The position numbers and the translations under genes are program-made. The notes under the pieces are model-generated. The model saw only the letters and a list, made by a program, of their open reading frames with translations, searched no databases and was not told where the DNA came from. A stretch of 64,000 nt of DNA from assembly GCF_044239695.1 (NCBI RefSeq), contig NZ_JBIIAW010000003.1, positions 5,316 to 69,315 on the forward strand. The letters are read 5' to 3'. Positions within the stretch are counted from its first letter, which is position 1. Each line of letters begins with the position of its first letter. Of the stretch, positions 15,079 to 56,472 are shown piece by piece. This stretch comes from Pseudolysinimonas sp. (GTDB lineage: Bacteria; Actinomycetota; Actinomycetes; Actinomycetales; Microbacteriaceae).

Positions 15079-16080
15079 TCAGGCGGAGATGATCGCGGGG
15101 TCCGGCACCGGCGCAGCGGGCTCGCGCGGGTCGCCGCCGGCCGCCACGAGGAGGTCGTTCGGCAGGTCGGCGAGGTAGTGCTCCGCGTCGAGCGCCGCGA
15201 CCGTGCCCGAACCCGCCGCGGTGATCGCCTGCTTGTAGGTCGGGTCGACGACGTCGCCGGCCGCGAAGACGCCGGGGATGTTGGTGCGCGACGATCGGCC
15301 CTCGACGGCGATCGTGCCGGCCTCGGTGAGGTCGAGCTGGCCGTGGATGAGGTGGGTGCGCGGGTCGGAGCCGATCGCGACGAACATGCCCTGCACGTCG
15401 AGCGTGGTCTCGGTGCCGGTCTCGGTGTCGACGATGCCGATGCCGGTGACCTTCTCGTCGCCGTAGACGTGCGCGACCTCCTGGTTCCAGAGCACCTGGA
15501 TCTTGGGATCGGCGAACGCGCGCTCCTGCATCGCGACCGAGGCGCGGAAGGCATCCCGGCGGTGCACGAGGTAGACGGTGTCGGCGAACCGAGTGAGGAA
15601 GGTCGCCTCCTCGAGGGCGGAGTCACCGCCGCCGATGACCGCGACCTTCTTCTGCTTGAAGAACGCCCCGTCGCAGGTGGCGCACCACGAGACGCCGTAG
15701 CCGGAGAGCCGGGTCTCGTCGGCGAGCCCGAGCTTGCGGTACTCCGAGCCCGTCGCGTAGATGACGGCGAGGGCCTCGACCACGGTGCCGTCGCCGAGGT
15801 GGATCTTCTTGACGTCGCCGGCGAGTTCGACCTTCGTCACGTCGTCGTAGACGATCTCGGCGCCGAACCGCTCGGCCTGCGCCTGCATCTTCATCATCAG
15901 GTCGGGACCCATGATGCCGTCGGGGAAGCCCGGGAAGTTCTCGACCTCGGTGGTCTTCATCAGCTCGCCGCCGAACTCCACGCTCGAGGCGATCACGAGG
16001 GGCTTGAGGTTCGCGCGCGCGGCGTAGATCGCGGCGGTGTACCCCGCCGGTCCTGAGCCGATGATCACGATCTGACGCAT
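15079..16080 (-). CDS. trxB: Thioredoxin-disulfide reductase
   Basis: This is the C-terminal 333 aa of a 762-aa shadow-extended ORF, starting at ATG 16080 (MRQIVIIGSGPAGYTAAIYA). Redox motif is WCATCDG. Confidence 0.95.
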   Translation of the reverse strand: MRQIVIIGSGPAGYTAAIYAARANLKPLVIASSVEFGGELMKTTEVENFPGFPDGIMGPDLMMKMQAQAERFGAEIVYDDVTKVELAGDVKKIHLGDGTVVEALAVIYATGSEYRKLGLADETRLSGYGVSWCATCDGAFFKQKKVAVIGGGDSALEEATFLTRFADTVYLVHRRDAFRASVAMQERAFADPKIQVLWNQEVAHVYGDEKVTGIGIVDTETGTETTLDVQGMFVAIGSDPRTHLIHGQLDLTEAGTIAVEGRSSRTNIPGVFAAGDVVDPTYKQAITAAGSGTVAALDAEHYLADLPNDLLVAAGGDPREPAAPVPDPAIISA

Positions 16081-16166: not shown

Positions 16167-17777
16167 TCAGTTTCGTCTGATGAAAGACACGGTGCCGCGC
16201 AGCTCCGGCGCGCGCGTCACGGCGAGCACGAGAAGGAAGACGAGGATGCCGACCACGCCGACCGCCGCCGTCGTGACGATCCCCTCCAGACGTCCCGCGG
16301 TCGCGAACCCGCCCGGGGCGAACCCGCCGAGCAGGGCCAGCACGCCGACCGCCGCTGCGGCCGCGGGGATCGTCGCGAGGGCGAAGATCCCGAAGCGCCG
16401 CACGATGCGACGCCCTCCGCCGCCGAGCCGCCGACGGAGGATGACGGCGCCGGCGAGGGCCTGCACGATGACGGAGAGGGAGGTGACCAGGCCGATGCCC
16501 GCCGCGATCCATGCCGACGGCGCGGCGAGGAGGGCGAGCGTGCCGGCGATGAAGAGTGCGGCCTGCACGACCTGGAGCAGGAACGGGGTGCGGGTGTCGC
16601 CGAGGGCGTAGAACGCGCGCTGCACGACGTAGAGGCTGCTGAACGGCACCAGACCGACGAGGAAGCCGAGGAGCACGATCGCGATCACCCGCGCCTCCTC
16701 GTCGCCGTCGGCGAAGAACCGCGCGAACGGCACCGCTGCCGCCGCGAGCGCGGCACCGGCTCCGGCCACCAGCATCCCGATCGCCCGCAGCGACGCGGAG
16801 AGGTCCGCGCGCAGGGCCGGGATGTCGGCATCCCGCACGGCTGCGGCCATCCGGGTGAAGTAGGGCGTCGCGATCGAGATCGCGATGATCGAGTGCGACA
16901 GCATGAAGATCAGCCAGGTGACCCGGAGCACGGCGAGCGAGGCATCGTCGGGGTTGGCGGTCGAGGCGACGTTGGTCTGCACCAGGTTGGTGAGCTGCAC
17001 GACGAGCACCATGCCGACGACCCAGCCGGCCGCCCGCGCGGGGGCTCCCAGCCCGGCCCCTCGCCAGCGGAAGTCGGGTCGGAACCGCAGGCCGGTCCGA
17101 CGCCAGAAGAACAGCAGCAGGATCGCCTGGAGCGCCACGCCGAGCGTCGCGCCGCCCCCGAGCACCGCGATGCGGTCCGGACTCCACTCCGCTGCCGCGT
17201 CGTGCGCCGGCACGACGCCGTACAGCGCGGCGAACAGCGCGAGGGTTCCGATCATCACGACGTTGTTGAGGGCCGGAGCCCACGCCGCCGGTCCGTAGAT
17301 GCCGCGGGCATTGAGCACCTCGCCGACGAGGGCGTAGACGGCGTAGAAGAAGATCTGAGGGAGGCACCAGTAGGCCAGCGACACCGCCAGCTCGAGGCCG
17401 CCTCCGGCCAGGGCTCCTTCTCGGCTGGCCAGGGCGTAGAGCCGCACGATCAGCGGCGCCGCGAAGGTGGCGGCGATCGTCGTGACCAGGAAGGCGGCGA
17501 CGCCGAGGGTCACCAGCCGGTTGACGAACGCCTGCCCGCCGTCGGCCTGCGTGGCCGCCTTGACGATGTGCGGCACGAGCACCGCCTGCAGCAGGCCCCC
17601 GGCGACGATGGCGTAGATGTAGGTCGGCAGTTGATTGGCGAGGGCGAAGGCGTTCGGTCCCGGCTGGGTGACGCCGATCACGGCGGCGAGCACCGCCGCG
17701 TTGGCGAAGCCGAGGAGGCGCGACAGGATCGTGCCGGACGCGAGAGCGGCACTCGCGCGTCCGACGGTCGCGCTCAC
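16167..17777 (-). CDS. murJ: Lipid II flippase MurJ (MviN)
   Basis: Internal GTG at 17777 (VSATVGRASAALASGTILSRLLGF) forms a GTGA overlap with the upstream gene stop. 536 aa, polytopic. Confidence 0.88.
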   Translation of the reverse strand: MSATVGRASAALASGTILSRLLGFANAAVLAAVIGVTQPGPNAFALANQLPTYIYAIVAGGLLQAVLVPHIVKAATQADGGQAFVNRLVTLGVAAFLVTTIAATFAAPLIVRLYALASREGALAGGGLELAVSLAYWCLPQIFFYAVYALVGEVLNARGIYGPAAWAPALNNVVMIGTLALFAALYGVVPAHDAAAEWSPDRIAVLGGGATLGVALQAILLLFFWRRTGLRFRPDFRWRGAGLGAPARAAGWVVGMVLVVQLTNLVQTNVASTANPDDASLAVLRVTWLIFMLSHSIIAISIATPYFTRMAAAVRDADIPALRADLSASLRAIGMLVAGAGAALAAAAVPFARFFADGDEEARVIAIVLLGFLVGLVPFSSLYVVQRAFYALGDTRTPFLLQVVQAALFIAGTLALLAAPSAWIAAGIGLVTSLSVIVQALAGAVILRRRLGGGGRRIVRRFGIFALATIPAAAAAVGVLALLGGFAPGGFATAGRLEGIVTTAAVGVVGILVFLLVLAVTRAPELRGTVSFIRRN

Positions 17778-46977: not shown

Positions 46978-47137
46978 TCGTATCCCTCCTCTCCGACTAA
47001 CCGCGGATGCGGCAATCGAAGGATAGATCGGGCGTCCGACAAGACTCCGGACGTTCGCTTCTTGGCTCGCAAACGTGACGTCATGGATCGGTGGTCGTTG
47101 CGTCAGCCCCAACCTCGACTACCACCCCAAAACACGA

Positions 47138-47167
47138 CAGCCGCACCCACAAACGCGGGTGCGGCTG
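47138..47167 (-). terminator. Orphaned intrinsic terminator of the original tRNA-Gly 3' end
   Basis: CAGCCGCACCC-8 nt-GGGTGCGGCTG, an 11-bp stem. On the minus strand it is followed by TCGTGTTTTGGGG. It lies 28 nt downstream of the displaced tRNA 3' half. Confidence 0.6.
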
Positions 47168-47194
47168 TCAACGATGTCCTGAGACATCACATGG

Positions 47195-47236
47195 GAGCGG
47201 ATGACGGGAATCGAACCCGCGCTATCAGCTTGGGAA
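47195..47236. repeat. att direct repeat (displaced 3' half of tRNA-Gly)
   Basis: GAGCGGATGACGGGAATCGAACCCGCGCTATCAGCTTGGGAA is identical to 56401-56442. The flanking bases differ on both sides. Confidence 0.95.
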
Positions 47237-47355
47237 AACGACGCCGACCCTTTCTCTGTCAGTCGAGATCGCGGGTGAAGCCCGCTATCTCGGTGAAGTG
47301 ACCTTAACAGTCGATGCCGGTTAGCGACAGTTCGCGACACGTTGCGACGGACCAG

Positions 47356-47376
47356 GAGTCCACGTCGCGTCCACGA
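47356..47376. promoter_or_regulatory. GTCCACG doublet (candidate integrase arm-type site), copy 1
   Basis: GAGTCCACGTCGCGTCCACGA. A near-identical GAGTCCACGTGCGTCCACGA lies at 56308-56327 in the same orientation. Each is about 75-140 nt inside an att repeat. Confidence 0.5.
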
Positions 47377-47435
47377 GATTGACCGCTGTCGTCGGGCGCC
47401 GTTACCTTGCGAGCGACGCGACGAGAGGGCGACGA

Positions 47436-48911
47436 ATGACCGCTGCACCCGCTGACCCCCGGCTCGACCCGGCCGCTGCGCAACGCACCGAGGACGTCTG
47501 GGCGACCGCGCTCGACGAGCACCGCGGATACCTCGCTCAGGTCGACGGCCTTGCCGAGTCGACGGTGACGGTGCGAATGCGGATGCTCAGCGCGATGGCG
47601 CGGAGCATCGGGCTCGGGCCGTGGGCCCTCTCGGACGAGGCCTTTTCGCTGTGGCTCGATCAGCGCGGGCTCGCTCGAGAAAGTCAGCGAACCTACCGCA
47701 AGGTCTCCCGCGGGTTCTATCGGTGGGCTGTGGCGGTCGGCTACATCGAGCGGCAGCCCCTCGCCGACCGACCAACGCGAGTTCGCCGAGCGCCCGAAGG
47801 TGCTTGGAGCGCCGGGTTGGAGGAGTGGGAGGTGCACGAGTCTCGGGTCGGCGCGAGCCCCGAGTACGTCCGGACTCGGGCAAAGCATCTCCGTCGCTTC
47901 GCCGACGAATGCGGTGTCGCCTCGCCCTGGAACGTCGAGCCGGCGCACGTGCATGGGTGGCTCGCTCGACTCAACGTGAGCGGCAGTACCGTCGCCGCGG
48001 CGCGGAACGCGCTGCGATCCTTCTACCGTTGGGCCTGCCACGACGGCCGGATCGAGCACGATCCTACGGACGAACCCTCTCGTCGAGCGAGCACCCGGTT
48101 CGCGCCCGAACGGTGGGAGGTCGAGATCTCGGCTTGGCGTCGCGCGATGCTCGCCGAGTCGAAGCCCTCGACGACGCTCATGCTGCGCGTGCAGCACCTT
48201 CGCCGCTTCGCGCGCGAGAACAGCCACCTCGCGCCGTTCGAGCCGACCACCGACGAACTGCTCGACTGGCTATCTCACAAGCGTTGGAGTCCCGAAACGC
48301 GGCGCTCGGTGCGCGGGTCACTGCGCGGGTTCTATCGCTGGGCGAAGCAGAGCGGCCGCGTGGCGAAGAATCCCGCGGCGAAACTGCCGGCCGTGAAGGC
48401 ACCGCTCTCGCACGCACGTCCCGCGGCCGACGCCGACTACCGGGCTGCCCTGGCGAAGGCGGACCGCTCCGAGCGGATGGCGTTGCGGCTGGCCGCCGAA
48501 CTCGGGCTGCGACGCGCCGAGGTCGCCGTGGTCCACACCTCCGACCTGCGACACACCGAGACCGGAATGCTCATCCTCGTCCACGGCAAGGGTCGCCGCG
48601 ATCGGGTGCTCCCGGTGCCGCAGTCCCTCGCAGACTCGCTCCGCGCGGTGACCCCCGGGTTCGTGTTCCCCGGGAAGATCGACGGGCACATTTCCCCGCA
48701 GTACCTGAGCAAGCGACTCGGGGCGCTGCTGCCGCCCGGGGTGAGCATGCACATGCTTCGACACCGCTTCGCGACTAACGCCTACGCCGTCGATCGCGAC
48801 GTGCTTACGGTCCAGCGTCTGCTCGGCCACTCTTCGCCGGCCACGACTCAGCGGTACGTCGCGGTGACCGATGATCGCATGCGCGAACTCGTGGAGGCGA
48901 TCGCATCGTGA
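47436..48911 (+). CDS. Tyrosine recombinase with three tandem core-binding (SAM-like) domains
   Basis: Start at ATG 47436 (track 47379). There are three repeats of about 90 aa, each ending in FYRWA(V/C/K). The single catalytic domain has R (GLRRAEV), K (HGKGRRDR), HxxR (HMLRHRF), H (LGHSS) and Y (TQRYV). Confidence 0.85.
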   Translation: MTAAPADPRLDPAAAQRTEDVWATALDEHRGYLAQVDGLAESTVTVRMRMLSAMARSIGLGPWALSDEAFSLWLDQRGLARESQRTYRKVSRGFYRWAVAVGYIERQPLADRPTRVRRAPEGAWSAGLEEWEVHESRVGASPEYVRTRAKHLRRFADECGVASPWNVEPAHVHGWLARLNVSGSTVAAARNALRSFYRWACHDGRIEHDPTDEPSRRASTRFAPERWEVEISAWRRAMLAESKPSTTLMLRVQHLRRFARENSHLAPFEPTTDELLDWLSHKRWSPETRRSVRGSLRGFYRWAKQSGRVAKNPAAKLPAVKAPLSHARPAADADYRAALAKADRSERMALRLAAELGLRRAEVAVVHTSDLRHTETGMLILVHGKGRRDRVLPVPQSLADSLRAVTPGFVFPGKIDGHISPQYLSKRLGALLPPGVSMHMLRHRFATNAYAVDRDVLTVQRLLGHSSPATTQRYVAVTDDRMRELVEAIAS

Positions 48912-49195
48912 CGCTGAACTTCGACTGCCCGGTCGCCTGGTGTAGCGGCTACCGTCCCGAGCACGGCGACGAGGGCGACGGGCCGCAGAAGTGGCTACAC
49001 ACGTCGGAGCACGAGGACATCGCCGAACTCGCGATCGGGGTGTTCTTCAGAGAGGGGATCGGGCCGACCACCTTCGCCGTGAGCATCACCACCACGGAAC
49101 TCGGCGGGAGCGCGGAGCAACTCCGTGCGGACGCCAAGAGGCTGCGCACGCTCGCCGCGGTCATGGAAGCGCGAGCGGGCTCGGTCGAGCAGTAG
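48908..49195 (+). CDS. Hypothetical protein with N-terminal C-P-x-x-W-C motif
   Basis: 95 aa, GTGA-coupled to the recombinase. Begins MTLNFDCPVAWCSGYRPEHGDEGDG. Confidence 0.55.
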   Translation: MTLNFDCPVAWCSGYRPEHGDEGDGPQKWLHTSEHEDIAELAIGVFFREGIGPTTFAVSITTTELGGSAEQLRADAKRLRTLAAVMEARAGSVEQ

Positions 49196-49291
49196 ACCTC
49201 GGGTCGGGGCTCCCAAGTCGAAGGCTTCGCTCAGTGGCGCGGCGCGCCGCTCCGACCGGTGACGGTCGCCCGATGTACGTTCAGCGGGTTG

Positions 49292-49309
49292 GCGGCCCGA
49301 AAGGGCCGC
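49292..49309 (+). terminator. Hairpin downstream of the recombinase operon
   Basis: GCGGCCC-GAAA-GGGCCGC followed by TGCTTCG. Confidence 0.5.
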
Positions 49310-49431
49310 TGCTTCGCCGTGCTCGCGCGAAGGCAGGGGGAACGCGGGACAACCCGAGGAGTTCCCGCGCGATCGCGCTTGTAGAGAGAGAAATCCGTGC
49401 TGCCGTCTAGCGGAGGTACGACGCATTCCTC

Positions 49432-49481
49432 AAAAAGATCGGGGCTAGGGCGAGTGTGAGCAGTGCTCTGTCGCCCTAGCC
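49432..49481 (-). terminator. Hairpin plus T-tract (intrinsic terminator on the minus strand)
   Basis: GGCTAGGGCGA...TCGCCCTAGCC (11-bp stem at 49443-49481 with an inner GAGCA/TGCTC stem). On the minus strand it is followed by CCGATCTTTTTG. Confidence 0.55.
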
Positions 49482-49500
49482 GCGTGCGCTTCGCTGGGAC

Positions 49501-49547
49501 GCGGGAACATCGGTAACGATCATCGGTCACATCGGTGACTCGGTCAC
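49501..49547. repeat. Repeat array A: GCGGGAAC + 4 x (A)TCGGTNAC
   Basis: GCGGGAAC 49501-49508, ATCGGTAAC 49509-49517, ATCGGTCAC 49522-49530, ATCGGTGAC 49531-49539, TCGGTCAC 49540-49547. Confidence 0.85.
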
Positions 49548-49653
49548 AAGCGCCATGTCTACCCGGCTGCCCGCGTGCCCGCTGTGCTCGTTGTCGAGGA
49601 GCGCGCACGCCGGACACCTCCACCAGAACCCAGGAAGTACCGTGGTGGCGCAC

Positions 49654-49688
49654 GCCGGGCAGGTGACCAGAAACGACACCTGCCCGGC
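49654..49688 (-). terminator. Hairpin just after the stop of the minus-strand operon
   Basis: GCCGGGCAGGTG-11 nt-CACCTGCCCGGC, a perfect 12-bp stem 18 nt past the stop at 49706. Confidence 0.6.
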
Positions 49689-49705
49689 GCAGCGACACCG
49701 CTCCA

Positions 49706-51106
49706 TCAGAGGACTTCCTGCCCGTAACGGGTGAAGAGTTTCGCCCGGATGTTCACAGGGTTGCGGCGGAAATACTCCTGGGCCGTCGAGTGATACGCGG
49801 CCGCATCTGCGGAGGGATTGAAGGTGACCCTCGGCGCGGGGACGGTCGATGCGCCGAGGGCGGCGCCGATCTCCGTGACGTAGGTGCCCGAGTTCTGCTT
49901 GCCGGCCTCGCTCCAGAATCGATCGAGTTCGGCACGCTGGGAAGTCGAAGCGCTCTGGTAGCCCGCGAGCATCGTGGCTGCCGCCTCCACACCCTGCTCG
50001 TTGAGGAACGCCTTCGCCTCGGCGCTGAGACCCGCGGTCGCAAGCGTCGCCTGGTAGTCGCGCAGAGCGGTCTCCCTCTCCTGCATCGCGGCAAGATACG
50101 CCGACACGTCGAACAGACCGGTCTCGGCGTCGATGAAGCCCTGCGTGCTGCCCGCCGCCTCGTCGTAGGCGGTGTTCACCGCCTTGATCAGCGCGACCTT
50201 GCCCTCGATCTCTGAGACCCCGGACGAGTAGTACAACTCCTGCATCTGGGTCGCCTCGCTGATCGCGTCGCGTTGCGCCCGCAGAAGCCCGAGTTCGTGC
50301 TCCAGGTCGGCGGCGCGGTTGCTCGCCTCCGTTGAGGCGAACTCGTTGTTGCCCTGCAACTCCAGGGCGCGGATGCGCTCGGCCGCTGCGAGTGCTTCTG
50401 TCTTGTCGATGAGGTCGTCGAGCGGTTCACCGCCTCCGGCGTACGCGTTAACGACGTCCTCGAAGTTCGATTCGAGATCGGCGGCGAGGCCGCTGAGCCG
50501 CTCCAGGTTCGCCTTGCTGTCATCGGTCTCTGTGGCGAGTCCGCGTACTTCATCCGCGATCCCGGAGAACGCGCGGCCCGCGATCGCGCCGGTGTCGATG
50601 AACTCGCTGGTGAGTTCCGCGACCTTGGCGCGGAACTCTTCGGAGTCCTCTTCCGCGCCAGTGATCGCGGCCGCGATCGTGCCGATAGTCGCCGCGGCTG
50701 CGACCGCGACGGGCACGAGCGCCGGGTTGACTTGCGCGAGGCCTGCGACCAGACCGCCGAACGTGCCCTGCACGCCGTCGACGAACGACGACACCGAGCC
50801 GTCGAACGACGAGAACGTCTCGGATGCGTTGGACAGCGCTTCGGCCTTGACTTCGCGCATCGACGCCGACGCTTTCGTGGCGCCGCGGTCGAGCCCGTCC
50901 GCGAGGTTCTGCCCGGCCTTGTTGCCGTCGCGCTCAGCCGCGCGGGCGAGATCCCGGAACGAACCTTCGAGCCGCTCTGTCGACTGATCGCCGTCGCGCG
51001 CAGCGTCGTCGAGCGCGTCGGCGACCTGGTCGAGCGCGCCGGCCACGTCCTTGATTCCGGCTTGTGCATCGCGAGTGTTCGCAGCGATGTCGAGACTGAG
51101 TGCCAT
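49706..51106 (-). CDS. Coiled-coil protein with central hydrophobic segment (tape-measure-like?)
   Basis: Start at ATG 51106, overlapping the upstream stop by 1 nt (TGATG). 466 aa, Ala/Glu/Asp-rich and helical. The hydrophobic core is GGLVAGLAQVNPALVPVAVAAAATIGTIAAAITGA. Confidence 0.65.
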   Translation of the reverse strand: MALSLDIAANTRDAQAGIKDVAGALDQVADALDDAARDGDQSTERLEGSFRDLARAAERDGNKAGQNLADGLDRGATKASASMREVKAEALSNASETFSSFDGSVSSFVDGVQGTFGGLVAGLAQVNPALVPVAVAAAATIGTIAAAITGAEEDSEEFRAKVAELTSEFIDTGAIAGRAFSGIADEVRGLATETDDSKANLERLSGLAADLESNFEDVVNAYAGGGEPLDDLIDKTEALAAAERIRALELQGNNEFASTEASNRAADLEHELGLLRAQRDAISEATQMQELYYSSGVSEIEGKVALIKAVNTAYDEAAGSTQGFIDAETGLFDVSAYLAAMQERETALRDYQATLATAGLSAEAKAFLNEQGVEAAATMLAGYQSASTSQRAELDRFWSEAGKQNSGTYVTEIGAALGASTVPAPRVTFNPSADAAAYHSTAQEYFRRNPVNIRAKLFTRYGQEVL

Positions 51107-51867
51107 CAGCGCGCCTCCATCCCGAGAGCCCGGGCGACGACCACGCGGCGAGTCTCGCCGTCCCGAGTTCGCTCGACCCGAACGGCTTCGGCGTAGATCT
51201 CGGCAGCGACGAGGTGACACTTCGCGCAGGCGAGGAGTGTCGGCACAGGAAGGCCGCGGGGGGTGAGTGTCGAGGGTGAGACCCAGTTCACGACTTCGAC
51301 GGGGGCGAGGGGGCGCGCCATGGGAGCACCTGCCTCGACCGCGCCGCAGACGGGACAGGTGTAGACGCTGCGCGCTGCCTCTTCGGCGCGGACTCGCTTC
51401 GCGTGCCGCTCGGCGTGGTGCTTGACGTGCGCGGCCGTGATCGTGAAGCGCGCCATTGACTCGTACCGGGTCGGCTCCTGCTCGAGGAGGTCGTCGACGA
51501 GGCGATCGATCGAGTCGCCCGCCCAGAGCGGTCGGGCGTACGGCCCGAGGAGCGCATCGGTGAGCGCGAACCCCGACAGAGGCTCGTCTTGCTCCTCGTC
51601 GGCAGAGGAGTCGGTAAGCGGCCGATGAGACCGCGTGCCGGCTCGCGCGGCTTCTCGGGCGCGCTCATCCTCTCGGCGTTCCGCGCGGTGCTTTGCGCTG
51701 AGCTCAAGGACCGCGATGTTCTGAGACACCGCGCGGGGGATTCGGCCGGGGGCGGTCGCTGAATGCTCCGTCCACGCGGCCCGGTGGCTTTCCGGGATGA
51801 AGTAGAACGACGCCTGGTCGTCGAAGCCCTCGGGCAGGGGATCGACGGTGCTGGGCTTGAGGCTCAT
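51106..51867 (-). CDS. Hypothetical protein with CxxC...CxxC zinc-ribbon-like motif
   Basis: Start at ATG 51867 (the track TTG at 51882 is possible). Motifs are CPVCG and CAKCH, about 45 aa apart. Confidence 0.55.
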   Translation of the reverse strand: MSLKPSTVDPLPEGFDDQASFYFIPESHRAAWTEHSATAPGRIPRAVSQNIAVLELSAKHRAERREDERAREAARAGTRSHRPLTDSSADEEQDEPLSGFALTDALLGPYARPLWAGDSIDRLVDDLLEQEPTRYESMARFTITAAHVKHHAERHAKRVRAEEAARSVYTCPVCGAVEAGAPMARPLAPVEVVNWVSPSTLTPRGLPVPTLLACAKCHLVAAEIYAEAVRVERTRDGETRRVVVARALGMEAR

Positions 51868-51925
51868 GGTGATGACGTCCAATCGAATTACAGGGTTGCG
51901 CGCAGATCCGCTGCACGCGCCGGGG

Positions 51926-53104
51926 CTAGAACGGCTCGTCCTCGTCGAATAGCGTCGAGGCCGGCGGTGGTGCCTCGTCCGTCTCGGGCTCCGCGGGCAG
52001 GTACCGCTCCCAGGCGTCGGCGAGGTGGTGGCGGGCGTAGCCCTTGGCAGTGCCGAGGGAGCCGAAGCGAATCGTGTTGTTCGTCGGGACGCCGTACTTC
52101 GAGAGTTGCCGGGCGATGAACCGGCTGTCGATCGGGGTGCCCTTGATGCTCGCCCAAGGCGCGGTCTCCATCGAGACCAGCGCGTCGAGGATGACCGTCG
52201 TGCGGAGCGCCTCCTCGCCCTCTGCGTCGAACACGGCGCGGAGGTCCGCGAGGAGCCGGATGCCGAGCGTGGCGGGGCGGTGGCTCTGCTCGTCGACCAT
52301 CGCGACGGCGGCGGCGCGGAGTCGGGTCGGCCACTCGCCGCCCGCGGCGTCCGCGATCGCGATGAGGGGCTCCCAGACGTCGGCGTTGCGGTCGACGATC
52401 GTCAACGGCAACTCGGGCCACACACCTTCCACGAGCGGCCGCGCGCTCAGGGCCCAGCGCTCCAAGTCGGCGCGGAGAATCGCCGCATCGGCCTCCGTGG
52501 CTCGGCGGCGGTAGGGCTCGATCTGCTCGCTCGGGCTGCGGCGCCGCATCGCGATGACGATCGACCGCGTCATCAGGGTGTCGGGCAGGCTGTTGAGCCC
52601 TGCCATAGCGACTGGCGCGAACGAGGACCATTCTTCGGTCACCACCTCTTTGCCGCGCACGCTCGCGCGGCCGACGACGGCGCCCTTGCGGTAGCCGCTG
52701 TTGAGCAGTCCACGGATCTCTTCGGTCGATTCGCTTGGTCGGTTGGTGAAGATCGAGTCGACCTCGTCGAACAGCAGTGTCGGGAGCGGTACCTCGTCTT
52801 CGACCGAGAGGCGTCGGAACAGGTAGGAGACCGTGGCGTTGACGGTGAGCACGGCGTCGGGCACGAGCGGCTCGGTGACCTCCAAGGCGCGGGACTTGCC
52901 GCTCCCCGGCTCAGGCGACAGGAACGCCAGGCGGGGGGAGTTGTCGAAGCAGCGCGCCAGGTGGGTGTGCGCGATCCACACGGTGTGCGCGACCCGGGCG
53001 TGCTCGGATGGGTACGCGACGAACCGTCGCAGGAATGCCTCGATGCTGTCGAGGACGTCGGCTCCGGCCGGAGCGGCTGGAGCCTTGGGCGGGCGGGGTG
53101 TCAC
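51926..53104 (-). CDS. DUF3631-type P-loop ATPase (PrimPol-associated replication protein)
   Basis: 392 aa. Walker A is EPGSGKSRALE and Walker B is LLFDEVD. GTGA overlap with PrimPol. Family recalled from typical PrimPol-DUF3631 pairs. Confidence 0.75.
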   Translation of the reverse strand: MTPRPPKAPAAPAGADVLDSIEAFLRRFVAYPSEHARVAHTVWIAHTHLARCFDNSPRLAFLSPEPGSGKSRALEVTEPLVPDAVLTVNATVSYLFRRLSVEDEVPLPTLLFDEVDSIFTNRPSESTEEIRGLLNSGYRKGAVVGRASVRGKEVVTEEWSSFAPVAMAGLNSLPDTLMTRSIVIAMRRRSPSEQIEPYRRRATEADAAILRADLERWALSARPLVEGVWPELPLTIVDRNADVWEPLIAIADAAGGEWPTRLRAAAVAMVDEQSHRPATLGIRLLADLRAVFDAEGEEALRTTVILDALVSMETAPWASIKGTPIDSRFIARQLSKYGVPTNNTIRFGSLGTAKGYARHHLADAWERYLPAEPETDEAPPPASTLFDEDEPF

Positions 53105-53847
53105 GAGGACGTGGCTCCGTAACGTCGGCGGGCGGAGGCGATGGTCTTCGCGATCTCGCTGTCGGTGAGACCGACGACCGAAGCCGCGGCCTCCAGGAGG
53201 TCAAAGGCGTCGGAGGAAAGGCCGGCTTCTGCGGCGCGGCACGCTGCCCAGAACAGCGCGGCGTTGCGGTTGCCCTCGGTCCTCGTTGACACGAACTCGG
53301 CGAGGTGCAGCGCTTTGCGCTCAGTCCGGCCCGCGGGGGCCGCCCGCTTGGGCGGCTCGACGGGACGCAATAGGGCGACCACCGACGCCGGGAGCGGGAC
53401 GGGCGGCCGCGACGCCCACGTGTACGGCTTGCCGGTCGACGGGTGGAGGCTTGGGGGCATGACGCAGTAGCCGCGGTCGGTCTTGACGTCGATCCCGGTT
53501 GGGAGGCGGGTGGCGCTCAGCGAGCCTGGGGGGCGACGGTAGTAGCGGTGTTGCCCTCCCGTGCCACGGCCGCTGTGAACGGTGAGGGTCTCGGGGAGGG
53601 GCTCACCCGTCGCCGCTTCGAGGTCGGCGACGGTGCCGCCGTTCTGCGGGTCGAAGTCGAGGACGACGAGCGTGGCCGGTACGCGAGCGCCGACGTTGTG
53701 CGCTTGCGTCGACCACCACCCGCGAATGGTCCGCTCGTCGGTGGTGGCGTCCTTGACGCCGTGCTGCGTGAGCGGCACTTTTCCGCGAAGCGGCAGGATC
53801 TCCCAGCCCGCATTAGCGAGGGCGAGGGCCTGGTCGAGGTCAGGCAT
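53101..53847 (-). CDS. Bifunctional DNA primase/polymerase (PrimPol, AEP family) N-terminal domain protein
   Basis: Contains the LVVLDFD acidic motif and TVHSGRGTGGQHRYY. Start at ATG 53847 (the track start at 53886 is possible). Confidence 0.8.
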   Translation of the reverse strand: MPDLDQALALANAGWEILPLRGKVPLTQHGVKDATTDERTIRGWWSTQAHNVGARVPATLVVLDFDPQNGGTVADLEAATGEPLPETLTVHSGRGTGGQHRYYRRPPGSLSATRLPTGIDVKTDRGYCVMPPSLHPSTGKPYTWASRPPVPLPASVVALLRPVEPPKRAAPAGRTERKALHLAEFVSTRTEGNRNAALFWAACRAAEAGLSSDAFDLLEAAASVVGLTDSEIAKTIASARRRYGATSS

Positions 53848-54109
53848 CGTCGGATCCCAGCGCGCGGCGCGTGCGGATGCGGTCATCGCGGCTCGCCTGC
53901 GAGTACTCGCCCGGGTTGGCGAGCCTCTGCCGCAGTCGAGCGGCTTCAGACGTCAGTGCAGCGCGGGAGGGTGATTCGGCCGGCTCGACGAGGGCCTTCC
54001 GTTCAAGGGCCGCGAGGCGGGCTACGAGCGGGGCCGCGGCTTCGGCGCGGGTGGGGCCGGGGGCGTGCGAGGCGAAGAGCGCCGCGCCCTCGTCGTCGTG
54101 CGCGGTCAC
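53840..54109 (-). CDS. Hypothetical protein
   Basis: 89 aa from GTG 54109 (GTGA overlap with the upstream stop). Ala/Arg-rich and helical. Weak call. Confidence 0.4.
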   Translation of the reverse strand: MTAHDDEGAALFASHAPGPTRAEAAAPLVARLAALERKALVEPAESPSRAALTSEAARLRQRLANPGEYSQASRDDRIRTRRALGSDDA

Positions 54110-54339
54110 GGCTGACCCATCCAGGGTGCGAGTCGTCCCCGATCGCGAAGGCACGCGATCGCCTGCCGGGTCTCGCGTCGGCTGGGCATGAGGTAGACCG
54201 GGAGGGTCCGGGCGAATTCGTCGAGCGCGAGCCGGAAGTCGCGCGAGCCGGGGTTGGCGCACACCTCTCTCGGCACGACGTTCTGAGCGTGCTCGACGAA
54301 CTGGGCTGCGAGAGGCAGTCGCTGCTCGGTCGCGGTCAT
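54106..54339 (-). CDS. Hypothetical protein
   Basis: 77 aa. ATGA overlap with the Xis-like gene. Confidence 0.45.
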   Translation of the reverse strand: MTATEQRLPLAAQFVEHAQNVVPREVCANPGSRDFRLALDEFARTLPVYLMPSRRETRQAIACLRDRGRLAPWMGQP

Positions 54340-54539
54340 CGGTTCGCGGCGACGGGGCGCATGTGCGCCTCGATGTACTCGTCGACGGCGGACTCGGGGA
54401 CTCGGACCGAGCGACCGACCTTGACGGTGCGGAGGGCTCGACCTTGGGTGAGCGTGCGCGCTTGGCGCGGCGTGATGCTCAGCACCTCGGCGAGCTCGGC
54501 GGGCGTGTAGAGGCGTTCGCGGGATGGTGAAGACGTCAC
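54336..54539 (-). CDS. Excisionase/AlpA-type helix-turn-helix DNA-binding protein
   Basis: 67 aa. GTG start with AGGAG 7 nt upstream. HTH is YTPAELAEVLSITPRQARTL...GRSVRVPESAVDEYI. Confidence 0.75.
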   Translation of the reverse strand: MTSSPSRERLYTPAELAEVLSITPRQARTLTQGRALRTVKVGRSVRVPESAVDEYIEAHMRPVAANR

Positions 54540-54874
54540 GGGCGTGCTCCTAGGGAGGCGACCGCGGCTTACCCCGTACGGGTGCGATGGAGAGGGCTAC
54601 TCTCGCCGGCCTACTACTTTCGGAGCCCGATTCCGTCCGGGCCTTGACCTTCTACGCAGCGGGGCGACCGCTGCTCTCATCCGACAGGCCCTCTCCCAGG
54701 AGCACGGTGCCGGGTTGACCTTCCGCCTGGCGGGCGGCTGCGGTCTTGCGGCGCTGACCTCCGTTTGCCTGGCGGCTCGGGAGGGTCCTTTTCTGTCGTG
54801 TTGCCGAAAACTTAACCCTCGCGACCGACTGTGACTCCTCGCGACACGCCGTGTCGAGTCGCGCCATTTCGAAT

Positions 54875-54921
54875 GTTCCCGCTGTTACCGATGTGACCGC
54901 ACGGTGTGACCGCTGTTACCG
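54875..54921. repeat. Repeat array B: GTTCCCGC + 4 x GTNACCG (inverted relative to array A)
   Basis: GTTCCCGC 54875-54882, GTTACCGAT 54884-54892, GTGACCG 54893-54899, GTGACCG 54906-54912, GTTACCG 54915-54921. The last copy overlaps the int stop codon. Confidence 0.85.
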
Positions 54922-56283
54922 CTCTGCGGGGTGAGACAGGAGGGGTACGCTCGGCGCGCCCGCACCGAAGAGCGCGTCGATCCGGTCGGCGAGCGAGCGG
55001 TCGGCGCCCTCGGCGAGGTGAGCGTAGATCGCCGCGGCACGCATGGTCGAGTGCCCGAGTCGTGCCTGCACCTCGGGGACGCTCGCGCCCGCACGGTAAG
55101 CGAGAGTCGCCCCGGTGTGTCGGAGGTCGTGCCAGGTGAGTTCGGGTCGGTCGATCGCGGCTCGCGCCCTGCGGAACAGGAACGAGACTCGGGCGTTCGT
55201 GACCGGCGCGCCGTCGATCGCGAACAGTAGCGCCTCGGGGTCGGCCGCGACGTAGGTATCGAGGTGGTCGACCAGGGCAGCGTGCACGAACCCGGGGAGG
55301 TGCACGACGCGTCGGCTGCGCTCGGTCTTCGGGGGGCCGAAGCGGATCGGTTCGCCAGGGACGCAGACCAGTGCTCTCTCGACGCTCACCGTTCCTGCCG
55401 CGACGTCGACGTGGCGCCGGGCGAGCGCGAAGAGTTCGCCGTAGCGCAGGCTCGACCAGGCTGCGATCGTCACCGCGGCTGCGAGCGGCCCCGGCATCGT
55501 CGCTGCGATCGCGCGGACCTCGGCGGGGCTCGCCGTCGCACGTTCGCGGTGGCGGACCGCTCCGGCGTTCGGGATCTGGCAGGGGTTGGTCGCGATCAGC
55601 CCGTCGTGCAGGGCCGTGCCCATTACGGTCCTGAGCACTCGGTAGGCGTGCGCGGCGGCGGTGCGGCCGGCTGCATCCGGGACGACGTCAGGCGCGCCTG
55701 CGAGCGTCGACGTCGGCGACCCCGCTGAACGCCACGCGCTGAGGACTGCGGGGCTGAGGCGCCCGGTAGCCGCTGCGGCCAAGCCGCGCTCTCGTGCCCA
55801 CTCTCGGGCAGGGTGCGCGCGCCGCGCCGCATCACGGCGCAGGCGCGCCTCGGCCGCGGTGCGGGTCGCTGCGAACACGGCGGCGTACCAGGTGCGTACG
55901 ACAGCGGGTGTGACGTCCGCGACCCGCATCCGCCCGAGGTCGATGATGCGGCCGCGCGAGGTGGTGACCGGGGCGAGCACGCGTCGTTGAAGGGTCCGTC
56001 GATACAGGTCGACGGTGCGGGGTGCGAGGTCGGGGCGGGACTCCAGCCAGTCGCCGATGTACGCCCCGAGGGTGACGTCGCCGAGCCGGGGGTCCTGCCA
56101 CGTGCCGCGTGACCGGTCGGCCCGCTCCTGCGCGAGCCACCCCTGCGCGGCGGCTTTGGTGTCGAAGGTGTGCGGTGCGCCGTAGCGCGATCCGTCGACG
56201 CGGTAGAAAGCGCGGTACCGGCCAGAGGGGAGCAGTTCTACGGTTCCCCAGCCGCCCGGGGTCTTGCGGGGTTTGCGACTCAT
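54916..56283 (-). CDS. int: Tyrosine integrase with N-terminal arm-type (AP2-like) DNA-binding domain
   Basis: Start at ATG 56283 (MSRKPRKTPGGWGTVELLPSGRYRAFYRVDG...). Catalytic residues are LRYGEL (R), HDLRHTG (HxxR), LGHST (H) and AIYAH (Y). It lies adjacent to the tRNA. Confidence 0.9.
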   Translation of the reverse strand: MSRKPRKTPGGWGTVELLPSGRYRAFYRVDGSRYGAPHTFDTKAAAQGWLAQERADRSRGTWQDPRLGDVTLGAYIGDWLESRPDLAPRTVDLYRRTLQRRVLAPVTTSRGRIIDLGRMRVADVTPAVVRTWYAAVFAATRTAAEARLRRDAARRAHPAREWARERGLAAAATGRLSPAVLSAWRSAGSPTSTLAGAPDVVPDAAGRTAAAHAYRVLRTVMGTALHDGLIATNPCQIPNAGAVRHRERATASPAEVRAIAATMPGPLAAAVTIAAWSSLRYGELFALARRHVDVAAGTVSVERALVCVPGEPIRFGPPKTERSRRVVHLPGFVHAALVDHLDTYVAADPEALLFAIDGAPVTNARVSFLFRRARAAIDRPELTWHDLRHTGATLAYRAGASVPEVQARLGHSTMRAAAIYAHLAEGADRSLADRIDALFGAGAPSVPLLSHPAER

Positions 56284-56307
56284 CACGAGCCTCTCTCGTA
56301 GGCACGT

Positions 56308-56327
56308 GAGTCCACGTGCGTCCACGA
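56308..56327. promoter_or_regulatory. GTCCACG doublet (candidate arm-type site), copy 2
   Basis: GAGTCCACGTGCGTCCACGA, 25-45 nt upstream of the int start and 74 nt from the att repeat. Confidence 0.5.
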
Positions 56328-56400
56328 AAGGGTCTGAACTCGCTTTCGGCTGGAGGCTGCTCAGCCCGTCGATCGCTTGGATCTCAGGGTTGAGTACTCC

Positions 56401-56442
56401 GAGCGGATGACGGGAATCGAACCCGCGCTATCAGCTTGGGAA
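56401..56442. repeat. att direct repeat inside the intact tRNA-Gly
   Basis: Identical 42-mer to 47195-47236. Covers the tRNA from the anticodon loop to the 3' end. Confidence 0.95.
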
Positions 56443-56472
56443 GCTGAAGTTCTGCCATTGAACTACATCCGC
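56402..56472 (-). tRNA. tRNA-Gly (anticodon CCC)
   Basis: Hand-folded 71-nt cloverleaf. Acceptor GCGGATG/CATCCGC, D stem GTTC/GAAC, anticodon stem TCAGC/GCTGA with loop TTCCCAA, T arm GCGGG-TTCGATT-CCCGT, discriminator T. No encoded CCA. Confidence 0.92.

Follow-up and report, generated by a model that had tools for sequence, protein, structure and literature searches.

A tape-measure homologue in a 9.2-kb tRNA-Gly island of Pseudolysinimonas sp. points to a possible phage satellite of tiny siphoviruses

A 64-kb stretch of a Pseudolysinimonas sp. contig (NZ_JBIIAW010000003.1, positions 5,316 to 69,315; hereafter the window, in which all coordinates are given) contains a 9.2-kb island at a tRNA-Gly(CCC) gene, bounded by a perfect 42-bp direct repeat (47195-47236 and 56401-56442) and carrying a 466-aa homologue of phage tape-measure proteins (TMPs). 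The island is intact, recurrent, site-specifically mobile and self-replicating, has no exit route of its own, and shares its TMP, which is its only structural gene, and part of one recombinase with a single phage group, so that a phage satellite is the best explanation for it. We propose from sequence, and with about even confidence, that it is a satellite of 15-17-kb temperate siphoviruses of the PensacolaC28 type. It is not an actinomycete integrative and conjugative element (AICE), not a phage-inducible chromosomal island (PICI) as recognised by SatelliteFinder, not similar to the PICI-like elements (PLEs) of Vibrio or to EPIPs beyond its TMP, and not a prophage of decayed genes; it falls within the broad kind of phage satellites and phage-related integrative islands.

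The island is tied to these phages through its TMP. An earlier note on this DNA had listed the 466-aa protein as a coiled-coil protein; the gene is present as described, but its product is not an anonymous coiled coil. It gave weak matches to Pfam TMP_N and phrog_1535, its AlphaFold2 (AF2) model was all-helical with a mean predicted local distance difference test score (pLDDT) of 66.7, and Foldseek against BFVD returned tape measures as the top, non-significant matches (E = 5e-3). Database searches recovered 56 homologues, mostly on contigs of 14.7-16.4 kb, the closest of which (69% amino acid and 76.8% nucleotide identity) lies on the 15.7-kb phage contig L001. This contig encodes TerL, a portal, a fusion of major capsid protein (MCP) and protease, four small head-tail genes, the TMP and minor tail proteins, as well as a 279-aa integrase, a repressor, a RepO-like initiator and an HNH protein. 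The same layout was found in 16-kb prophages, L003 in tRNA-Arg and L140 in tRNA-Lys, with 38-bp att repeats, and at least 78 of the 80 IMG/VR loci fetched through TMP alignment also carried TerL, portal and MCP genes, on uncultivated viral genomes of 13-17 kb. A hidden Markov model (HMM) built from 48 TMP homologues matched the annotated TMP, gp8, of PensacolaC28 over its full length (E = 6e-74). PensacolaC28 is a cultured Microbacterium phage whose capsid measures 36 nm and whose tail is 90 nm long, with a 16,749-bp genome that has a 3′ cos overhang. The MCP-protease fusion likewise connects the tiny-phage contigs to it; a tblastn search of INPHARED with the island TMP gave no match at 1e-3, and the link to cultured phages came by way of the MCP. 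Nucleotide homology between the island and L001 ends at the borders of the TMP reading frame, which is intact (466 aa versus 468 aa in L001) and has a dN/dS of 0.31. Judged by these comparisons, the protein is a homologue of the tape measure, a virion structural protein, and its full-length gene was acquired from tiny siphoviruses.

The island is also one of a family. Five further elements with perfect direct repeats have the same layout and measure 7.5-10.4 kb: L007 of Microbacterium sp. F2 (10.4 kb, tRNA-Gly(TCC), 45-bp repeat), L008 (7.55 kb, 43-bp repeat, with the same att as the window island), L062 (7.9 kb, 45-bp repeat) and L064 (8.6 kb, 46-bp repeat), all three in tRNA-Gly(CCC), and L066 (9.1 kb, tRNA-Arg(CCT), 23-bp repeat). 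The shared order runs from the tRNA through an integrase gene (int1), xis, PrimPol, a replication protein and optional cargo to a convergent second recombinase gene (rec2). Their backbones are 65-72% identical at the nucleotide level, indicating diverged relatives and not one decayed copy fixed across the genus, which the earlier note had named, together with a lack of excision, as fatal to a satellite. No Tra gene was found in the six bounded members, the window island included. This is a previously undescribed family of tRNA-integrating, self-replicating islands in Microbacteriaceae.

Within this family the TMP behaves differently from the backbone. Homologues are present in the window island, L007 (E = 1e-42) and L066 (E = 1e-27); L061 has a fragment of one, truncated where its contig stops, and L008, L062 and L064 have none. 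The L007 TMP, of ~390 aa, belongs to a different subfamily, with its nearest relatives in the complete tiny prophages L140 (59%) and L141 (57%). Island TMPs are at most 42% identical to one another, and only over the N-terminal ~100-130 residues; int1, PrimPol, the replication protein and rec2 of the window and L007 islands are 46-59% identical. In all three bounded members that carry a TMP, it is nearer to a phage TMP than to those of the other islands, which suggests that the TMP slot has been filled or replaced repeatedly from different phage lineages and points to repeated capture from, or exchange with, phages.

The JGI 3300059473 metagenome holds both the contig of the window and a 15,367-bp tiny-phage contig, whose TMP (P0008) is 52% identical to that of the island, a co-occurrence without a close TMP match. 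Superinfection exclusion by an Ltp-type lipoprotein encoded beside the phage integrase was also considered for the tiny phages; a lipobox was present in PensacolaC28 gp16 and absent from the other tiny phages checked, and the idea was set aside as speculation.

Gene calls were backed by framing from third-codon-position GC content (GC3) and by profile searches of Pfam, PHROGs and NCBIfam (Table 1). These confirmed the second recombinase, the Xis-like helix-turn-helix (HTH) protein, the PrimPol and the DUF3631 ATPase-type gene that the earlier note had named, and the translational couplings it reported were found as ATGA, GTGA and TGATG overlaps. They also upheld its list of missing functions, with no match among the island reading frames to an FtsK/TraB-type translocase or other Tra protein, relaxase, capsid, portal or terminase. 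Having no Tra, the island is no actinomycete conjugative element, and it is no complete prophage either, both as the note had judged; far from being debris, the element is intact. When 24 custom HMMs from nine tiny-phage loci were applied, the island matched with its TMP and integrase only, and tblastn with the proteins of L001 found nothing in the island besides the integrase domain and the TMP. Neither tblastn nor the HMM screens detected pseudogenes left over from head, tail or lysis genes, and a PADLOC defence scan gave no credible match. An apparent match to the phage gene that follows the TMP was rejected as an alternate-frame artefact of the TMP DNA homology. A 59-aa minus-strand reading frame (49527-49706) overlaps the TMP stop in a TGATG at its start, like the phage post-TMP gene; it has no similarity to that gene and no homologues, contains the hairpin just downstream of the TMP, and is probably not a real gene. 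The hairpin itself is, from its sequence and position, likely the terminator of the operon. For orf258 there were no relatives in a search of 5.8 billion proteins and 10 among 1.84 billion cluster representatives; genes of this rare family lie directly after the replication gene even without a TMP (in L142, DUF3631 is followed by an orf258-like gene), and at a pLDDT of 45.7 the AF2 model, made from the single sequence, could not be used for a fold search.

Table 1 Coordinates of the island genes, boundaries and repeat clusters in the 64-kb window
Feature	Position	Strand	Evidence or remark
Orphaned intrinsic-terminator-like hairpin, 16-bp stem and T-run	47135-47170	-	past the displaced 3′ half
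attR core (displaced 3′ 42 nt of tRNA-Gly(CCC))	47195-47236	-	repeat, 100%
rec2, long tyrosine recombinase	47379-48911	+	Pfam; alternative ATG start 47436
orf95	48908-49195	+	GTGA-coupled to rec2
4 x CGGTNAC cluster, iteron-like	49511-49547	.	repeat search
Hairpin, 11-bp stem	49655-49687	-	sequence; 19 nt downstream of TMP stop
TMP homologue, 466 aa, full length	49706-51106	-	TGATG-coupled to upstream gene
orf258 (253 aa if from ATG 51867)	51106-51882	-	C-terminal CPVCG...C..C motif
RepAM (DUF3631) replication initiator	51926-53104	-	Pfam E = 3.9e-56
PrimPol, Prim-Pol and PriCT_1	53101-53886	-	Pfam (Prim-Pol 1e-36), PHROGs
89-aa unknown ORF	53840-54109	-	GTGA-coupled
77-aa unknown ORF	54106-54339	-	ATGA-coupled
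xis, HTH_17/excisionase-family DNA-binding protein (Xis/AlpA-like)	54336-54539	-	Pfam 7e-11, TIGR01764 3e-10
4 x GTNACCG cluster, inverted relative to 49511-49547	54884-54921	.	upstream end of 376-bp non-coding region before xis
int1, tyrosine integrase, phage-type N-terminal domain	54916-56325	-	Phage_integrase; probable start ATG 56283
attL core (3′ 42 nt, part of intact tRNA-Gly(CCC))	56401-56442	-	repeat search
Intact tRNA-Gly(CCC)	56401-56472	-	ARAGORN; Rfam 71.5 bits

The boundaries are sharply defined. The 42-bp repeat corresponds to positions 31-72 of the tRNA-Gly(CCC), from the anticodon loop through the 3′ end, and by our own estimate a 42-mer repeat would be expected by chance in 64 kb with a frequency of ~1e-16. 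The hairpin read from 47170 to 47135 is the original terminator of the tRNA gene, now standing behind the displaced 3′ half. The repeat, the intact tRNA and the orphaned terminator, all reported in the earlier note, were borne out by repeat search, ARAGORN, Rfam and the sequence of the hairpin. No third, partial or degenerate att copy was found inside the island. In L007, a degenerate third copy of the tRNA-Gly(TCC) 3′ end is located at 16787-16831, 150 bp beyond attR and identical in its last 23 nt only, and looks like a scar left by a previous integration into this tRNA. Elsewhere in the window, ARAGORN called a 96-nt tRNA-Gly(GCC) at 15751-15846, where there is no Rfam tRNA at the gathering threshold, and this call is probably a false positive.

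The two recombinases appear to have separate roles. The earlier note had called int1 an arm-binding-type integrase, and an Integrase_N_phage match on an identical gene in another contig supports an arm-type N-terminus. The rec2 product consists of three tandem SAM-like/core-binding (CB) repeats of ~95 aa, each ending in FYRWA; the repeats share 30-36% identity, and a complete catalytic domain comes after them. This domain is 37% identical to the L001 integrase and 43% identical to PensacolaC28 gp17, with a range of 37-45% across the tiny-phage integrases, which are the one-repeat relatives of rec2. The long form is kept in at least 10 loci (among them L007 14724-16163 and L008 6239-7666) and is usually followed by orf95, whose homologue in L007 matches DUF6907. 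In L066, int1 is 25% identical and the tRNA is a different one, while rec2 is conserved; the tRNA target thus co-varies with int1 and not with rec2, indicating that int1 is the integrase and that rec2 has another role. In L071, L073 and L086, int1-like and rec2-like genes stand in tandem on the same strand, unlike in the island family, and these may be multi-recombinase elements.

The replication module has relatives in several kinds of element. DUF3631 is RepAM, the replication initiator of pMEA300, and PrimPol with RepAM is a recognised AICE replication module (PMC3218068). Relatives of the island RepAM at ~50% identity were found at 51 loci, and some of those in Actinomycetota lie in small tRNA-bounded elements with single phage morphogenesis genes. 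In Nocardioides sp. URHA0020 (L055, 7861-17440), a 9.55-kb element with a 29-bp repeat in tRNA-Val(GAC) carries an integrase, a RepAM-type protein, an HK97-type MCP (Pfam 2e-40) and a 753-aa Laminin_G_3 protein. In an Acidimicrobiales metagenome-assembled genome (L013, 6224-18325), a 12.1-kb element with a 45-bp repeat occupies tRNA-Lys(CTT). Besides RepAM it encodes a large terminase, apparently split into two reading frames, and a 19-23-bp repeat, TGTCAGCGGAATGTCAGCG, stands near both of its ends and just after RepAM; a further RepAM-relative element, L041, carries TerL. The 13.7-kb tiny phage L230 (IMGVR_UViG_2839637960_000002) encodes a RepAM 49% identical to that of the window upstream of its TerL-portal-MCP-TMP genes. 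This replicon is therefore common to conjugative elements, tiny phages and satellite-like islands.

Repeat clusters accompany the module. The CGGTNAC and GTNACCG clusters of Table 1 are the only two in the window and both lie within the island, and the one at 49511-49547 is a probable replication origin or protein-binding site. The equivalent intergenic region of every family member holds a cluster as well, and its sequence differs from one member to the next: 3 x 52 bp in L007, ~7 x CCTACCG around an AT-rich spacer in L062, 5 x GTGTGGCG in L064 and 4 x GGGGCACCGCAG in L066. No 10-mer is shared among the intergenic regions of the family. We infer that the clusters are Rep-specific origin iterons, the alternative being clt-like sites.

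If the island is a satellite, infection by a helper tiny phage, or its induction, would lead int1 and Xis to excise the island, which PrimPol and RepAM would then amplify from the iteron region. Helper terminase would package the island DNA into helper capsids through a putative cos/pac mimic, and tails otherwise made by the helper would incorporate the island TMP and so become chimeric, as in the Vibrio PLEs; alternatively, the island TMP may compete with that of the helper and disturb helper tail assembly. The satellite idea, already raised in the earlier note, is strengthened by the tiny-siphovirus TMP, the phage-like catalytic domain of rec2, the recurrent bounded family and the exchange of TMPs. 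Several observations weigh against it. The nearest phage TMP is just 69% identical, and tblastn with the L001 proteins found no helper prophage in the window. No excised form or circular junction was recovered; L232, a second contig with an identical island, only breaks within the att repeat. Non-coding similarity to the tiny phages, including any mimicry of cos or pac, did not exceed chance when all non-coding segments were compared by blastn with eight tiny-phage genomes and their joined ends. At 9.2 kb, about 55-60% of the helper genome, neither a monomer nor a dimer of the island fits an unmodified cos capsid (16 kb). No TerS and no capsid-remodelling or hijack gene (Ppi/Rpp, Cpm-type) matched in Pfam, PHROGs or NCBIfam, where small reading frames could hide analogues, and no repressor or antirepressor-sensing gene was identified in the island. 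The TMP, being absent from L008, L062 and L064, is accessory; PrimPol-RepAM is also the replication module of conjugative AICEs; and the order RepAM ... TMP ... integrase is partly collinear with L230, making descent from such a phage plausible.

Part of this evidence leads to other readings. The island could be a tra-less derivative of the AICE lineage, an integrative plasmid or mobilisable element that is inherited vertically or mobilised in trans by a co-resident FtsK-like TraB for which the short repeat clusters serve as a clt locus, with the TMP as a passenger. For integration and replication, the island has exactly the AICE set of int, xis, PrimPol and RepAM (PMC3218068), the 7-12-bp repeat clusters resemble the architecture of clt/TRS (TraB recognition sequence) sites, and three family members lack any phage gene. 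We nevertheless consider this origin unlikely, given that none of the six bounded members has Tra, that repeats differing from member to member are a better fit to Rep-specific iterons than to a shared clt, and that RepAM also occurs in a tiny phage and in capsid- or terminase-bearing islands. Passenger status would leave unexplained why intact, full-length TMPs of different phage subfamilies recur in one slot under purifying selection, and the likeness of rec2 to the integrases of the same phages would be unexplained as well.

A reduced, non-transmissible descendant of a tiny RepAM prophage, kept for the benefit of the host (for example as a dominant-negative TMP decoy against tiny phages) and not packaged, would account for the collinearity with L230 (RepAM ... 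TerL-portal-MCP ... TMP) and for the place of rec2, which is exactly that of the convergent integrase beside the displaced tRNA half at the ends of L003 and L140. The shared genes, TMP, integrase and RepAM/PrimPol, all come from the phage pool, and defence aimed at tail assembly was recently reported (PMC12987554). The lack of head, tail and lysis remnants and of PADLOC matches speaks against such descent, as does the absence of the tRNA-side int1 and xis, the triple-CB rec2, orf95 and orf258 from the tiny phages examined, and the family's perfect att repeats of 23-46 bp, which flank divergent cargo and lie in two kinds of tRNA, favour site-specific mobility that is still going on; we judge such descent improbable. 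The earlier note had offered a decayed siphovirus prophage as the refutation of a satellite, and this divides accordingly: the unknown reading frames are not decayed phage genes, and the map is partly collinear with a RepAM tiny phage. Far less probable still is a composite of two elements at the same tRNA-Gly site, an int1-xis-PrimPol-RepAM island and a tiny-prophage remnant (TMP ... integrase). The two recombinases do stand at opposite ends, each beside an att copy, and both the TMP and the rec2 catalytic domain have tiny-phage affinity, but a third att copy, even a degenerate one, is absent from the interior of the island, the two-recombinase layout including rec2-orf95 is kept in the TMP-less L008, L062 and L064, and rec2, with its three CB repeats, is a long form of its own and not a remnant of a phage integrase.

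Returning to the satellite reading, a more specific version can be put forward tentatively, and with clearly less confidence. The islands would form a new Microbacteriaceae satellite family, parasitic on the smallest tailed phages known (15-17 kb), with the TMP as sole structural gene, repeatedly swapped to match or mismatch the local helper. In this version rec2, with its core-binding domain in triplicate, would stem from a helper integrase, and its target would be the helper prophage (e.g., to trigger or block its excision) and not the att of the island itself.

The statement in the earlier note that satellites are barely characterised in Actinobacteria is a fair one, though MiniFlayer/MulchRoom, the EPIPs and predicted phiRv1-like PICIs are existing examples. 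If the satellite reading is true, satellite biology would reach the Microbacteriaceae and helpers that are about as small as tailed phages get, where packaging is under extreme constraint, and the island would be an independent case of a satellite-encoded TMP, here as sole structural gene and with evidence of repeated exchange with helper lineages. The PrimPol-RepAM replicon would be common to conjugative elements, tiny phages and satellite-like islands, and the genome-mining rule that int with RepAM/PrimPol denotes an AICE would misclassify such islands. The system is experimentally accessible, since Microbacterium sp. F2, the carrier of the L007 island, is a cultured isolate, and tiny phages of Microbacterium are in culture too.

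Among known systems, the pMEA300, pSE211 and SLP1 clades of AICEs (PMC3218068) have in common with the island Xis, the PrimPol-RepAM pair and integration into the 3′ end of a tRNA by a tyrosine integrase; unlike them, the island lacks an FtsK/SpoIIIE-type Tra and spread genes, belongs to a non-mycelial host family and contains a phage tail gene. With the PensacolaC28-like phages (16.7 kb) it shares the TMP, the integrase catalytic domain, tRNA integration, an integrase-type gene beside the displaced tRNA half and, in some (L230), RepAM, whereas it has no TerL, portal, MCP-protease fusion, adaptor, tail terminator, major tail protein, tail assembly chaperone (TAC), minor tail proteins, lysin, holin, repressor or HNH gene. 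Arthrobacter cluster AN and the small Gordonia phages are more distant. The PICI-like layout suggested in the earlier note holds for the order of int, regulator and primase-replicase and fails for TerS, capsid remodelling and a repressor. In that order, in size (8-15 kb for these predicted satellites, 8-20 kb in the definition used for SatelliteFinder), in an AlpA/Xis HTH and in fixed-site integration the island resembles the PICIs and phiRv1-phiRv2-like elements of SatelliteFinder (PMC10085698). Its replicase family is not the classical PICI Pri-Rep, however, it has no TerS, capsid-morphogenesis or redirecting genes or Stl-like repressor, and it adds a second recombinase and a TMP. With P4-like satellites, which are marked by an alpha primase-helicase, the capsid-size genes psu/delta/sid and ash/cos, only the PrimPol domain is common, no other P4 core family being matched in Pfam, PHROGs or NCBIfam.

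Further parallels are the satellites that encode a TMP. The PLEs of Vibrio cholerae, satellites of ICP1, form chimeric tails with a TMP of their own, as shown experimentally (PMC12987554), and like the island they are small, integrated and without most morphogenesis genes; the logic proposed here, a virion made by the helper into which the satellite puts its own TMP, is the same. PLEs differ in their large serine recombinase, TAC, baseplate hub and myovirus helper (PMC12987554), and the island differs in its tyrosine recombinases and PrimPol-RepAM, with neither TAC nor hub found by Pfam, PHROGs, NCBIfam or custom HMMs. PLE TMPs are ~20% identical to the helper TMP, compared with 57-69% between island-family and tiny-siphovirus TMPs. 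EPIPs are 11-kb satellites of the Mycolicibacterium aichiense prophage HerbertWM that encode a TMP (PMC12822802, preprint), and are thus, like the island, actinobacterial elements of ~10 kb with a tape measure. They have been isolated as particles, with genomic and electron microscopy evidence, and they add TerS, a head-tail adaptor and stopper, a scaffold, an MCP and a serine integrase (PMC12822802), none of which the island has. TMP-encoding satellites were first reported in 2025-2026, with the PLEs and EPIPs, and the island would add to that kind.

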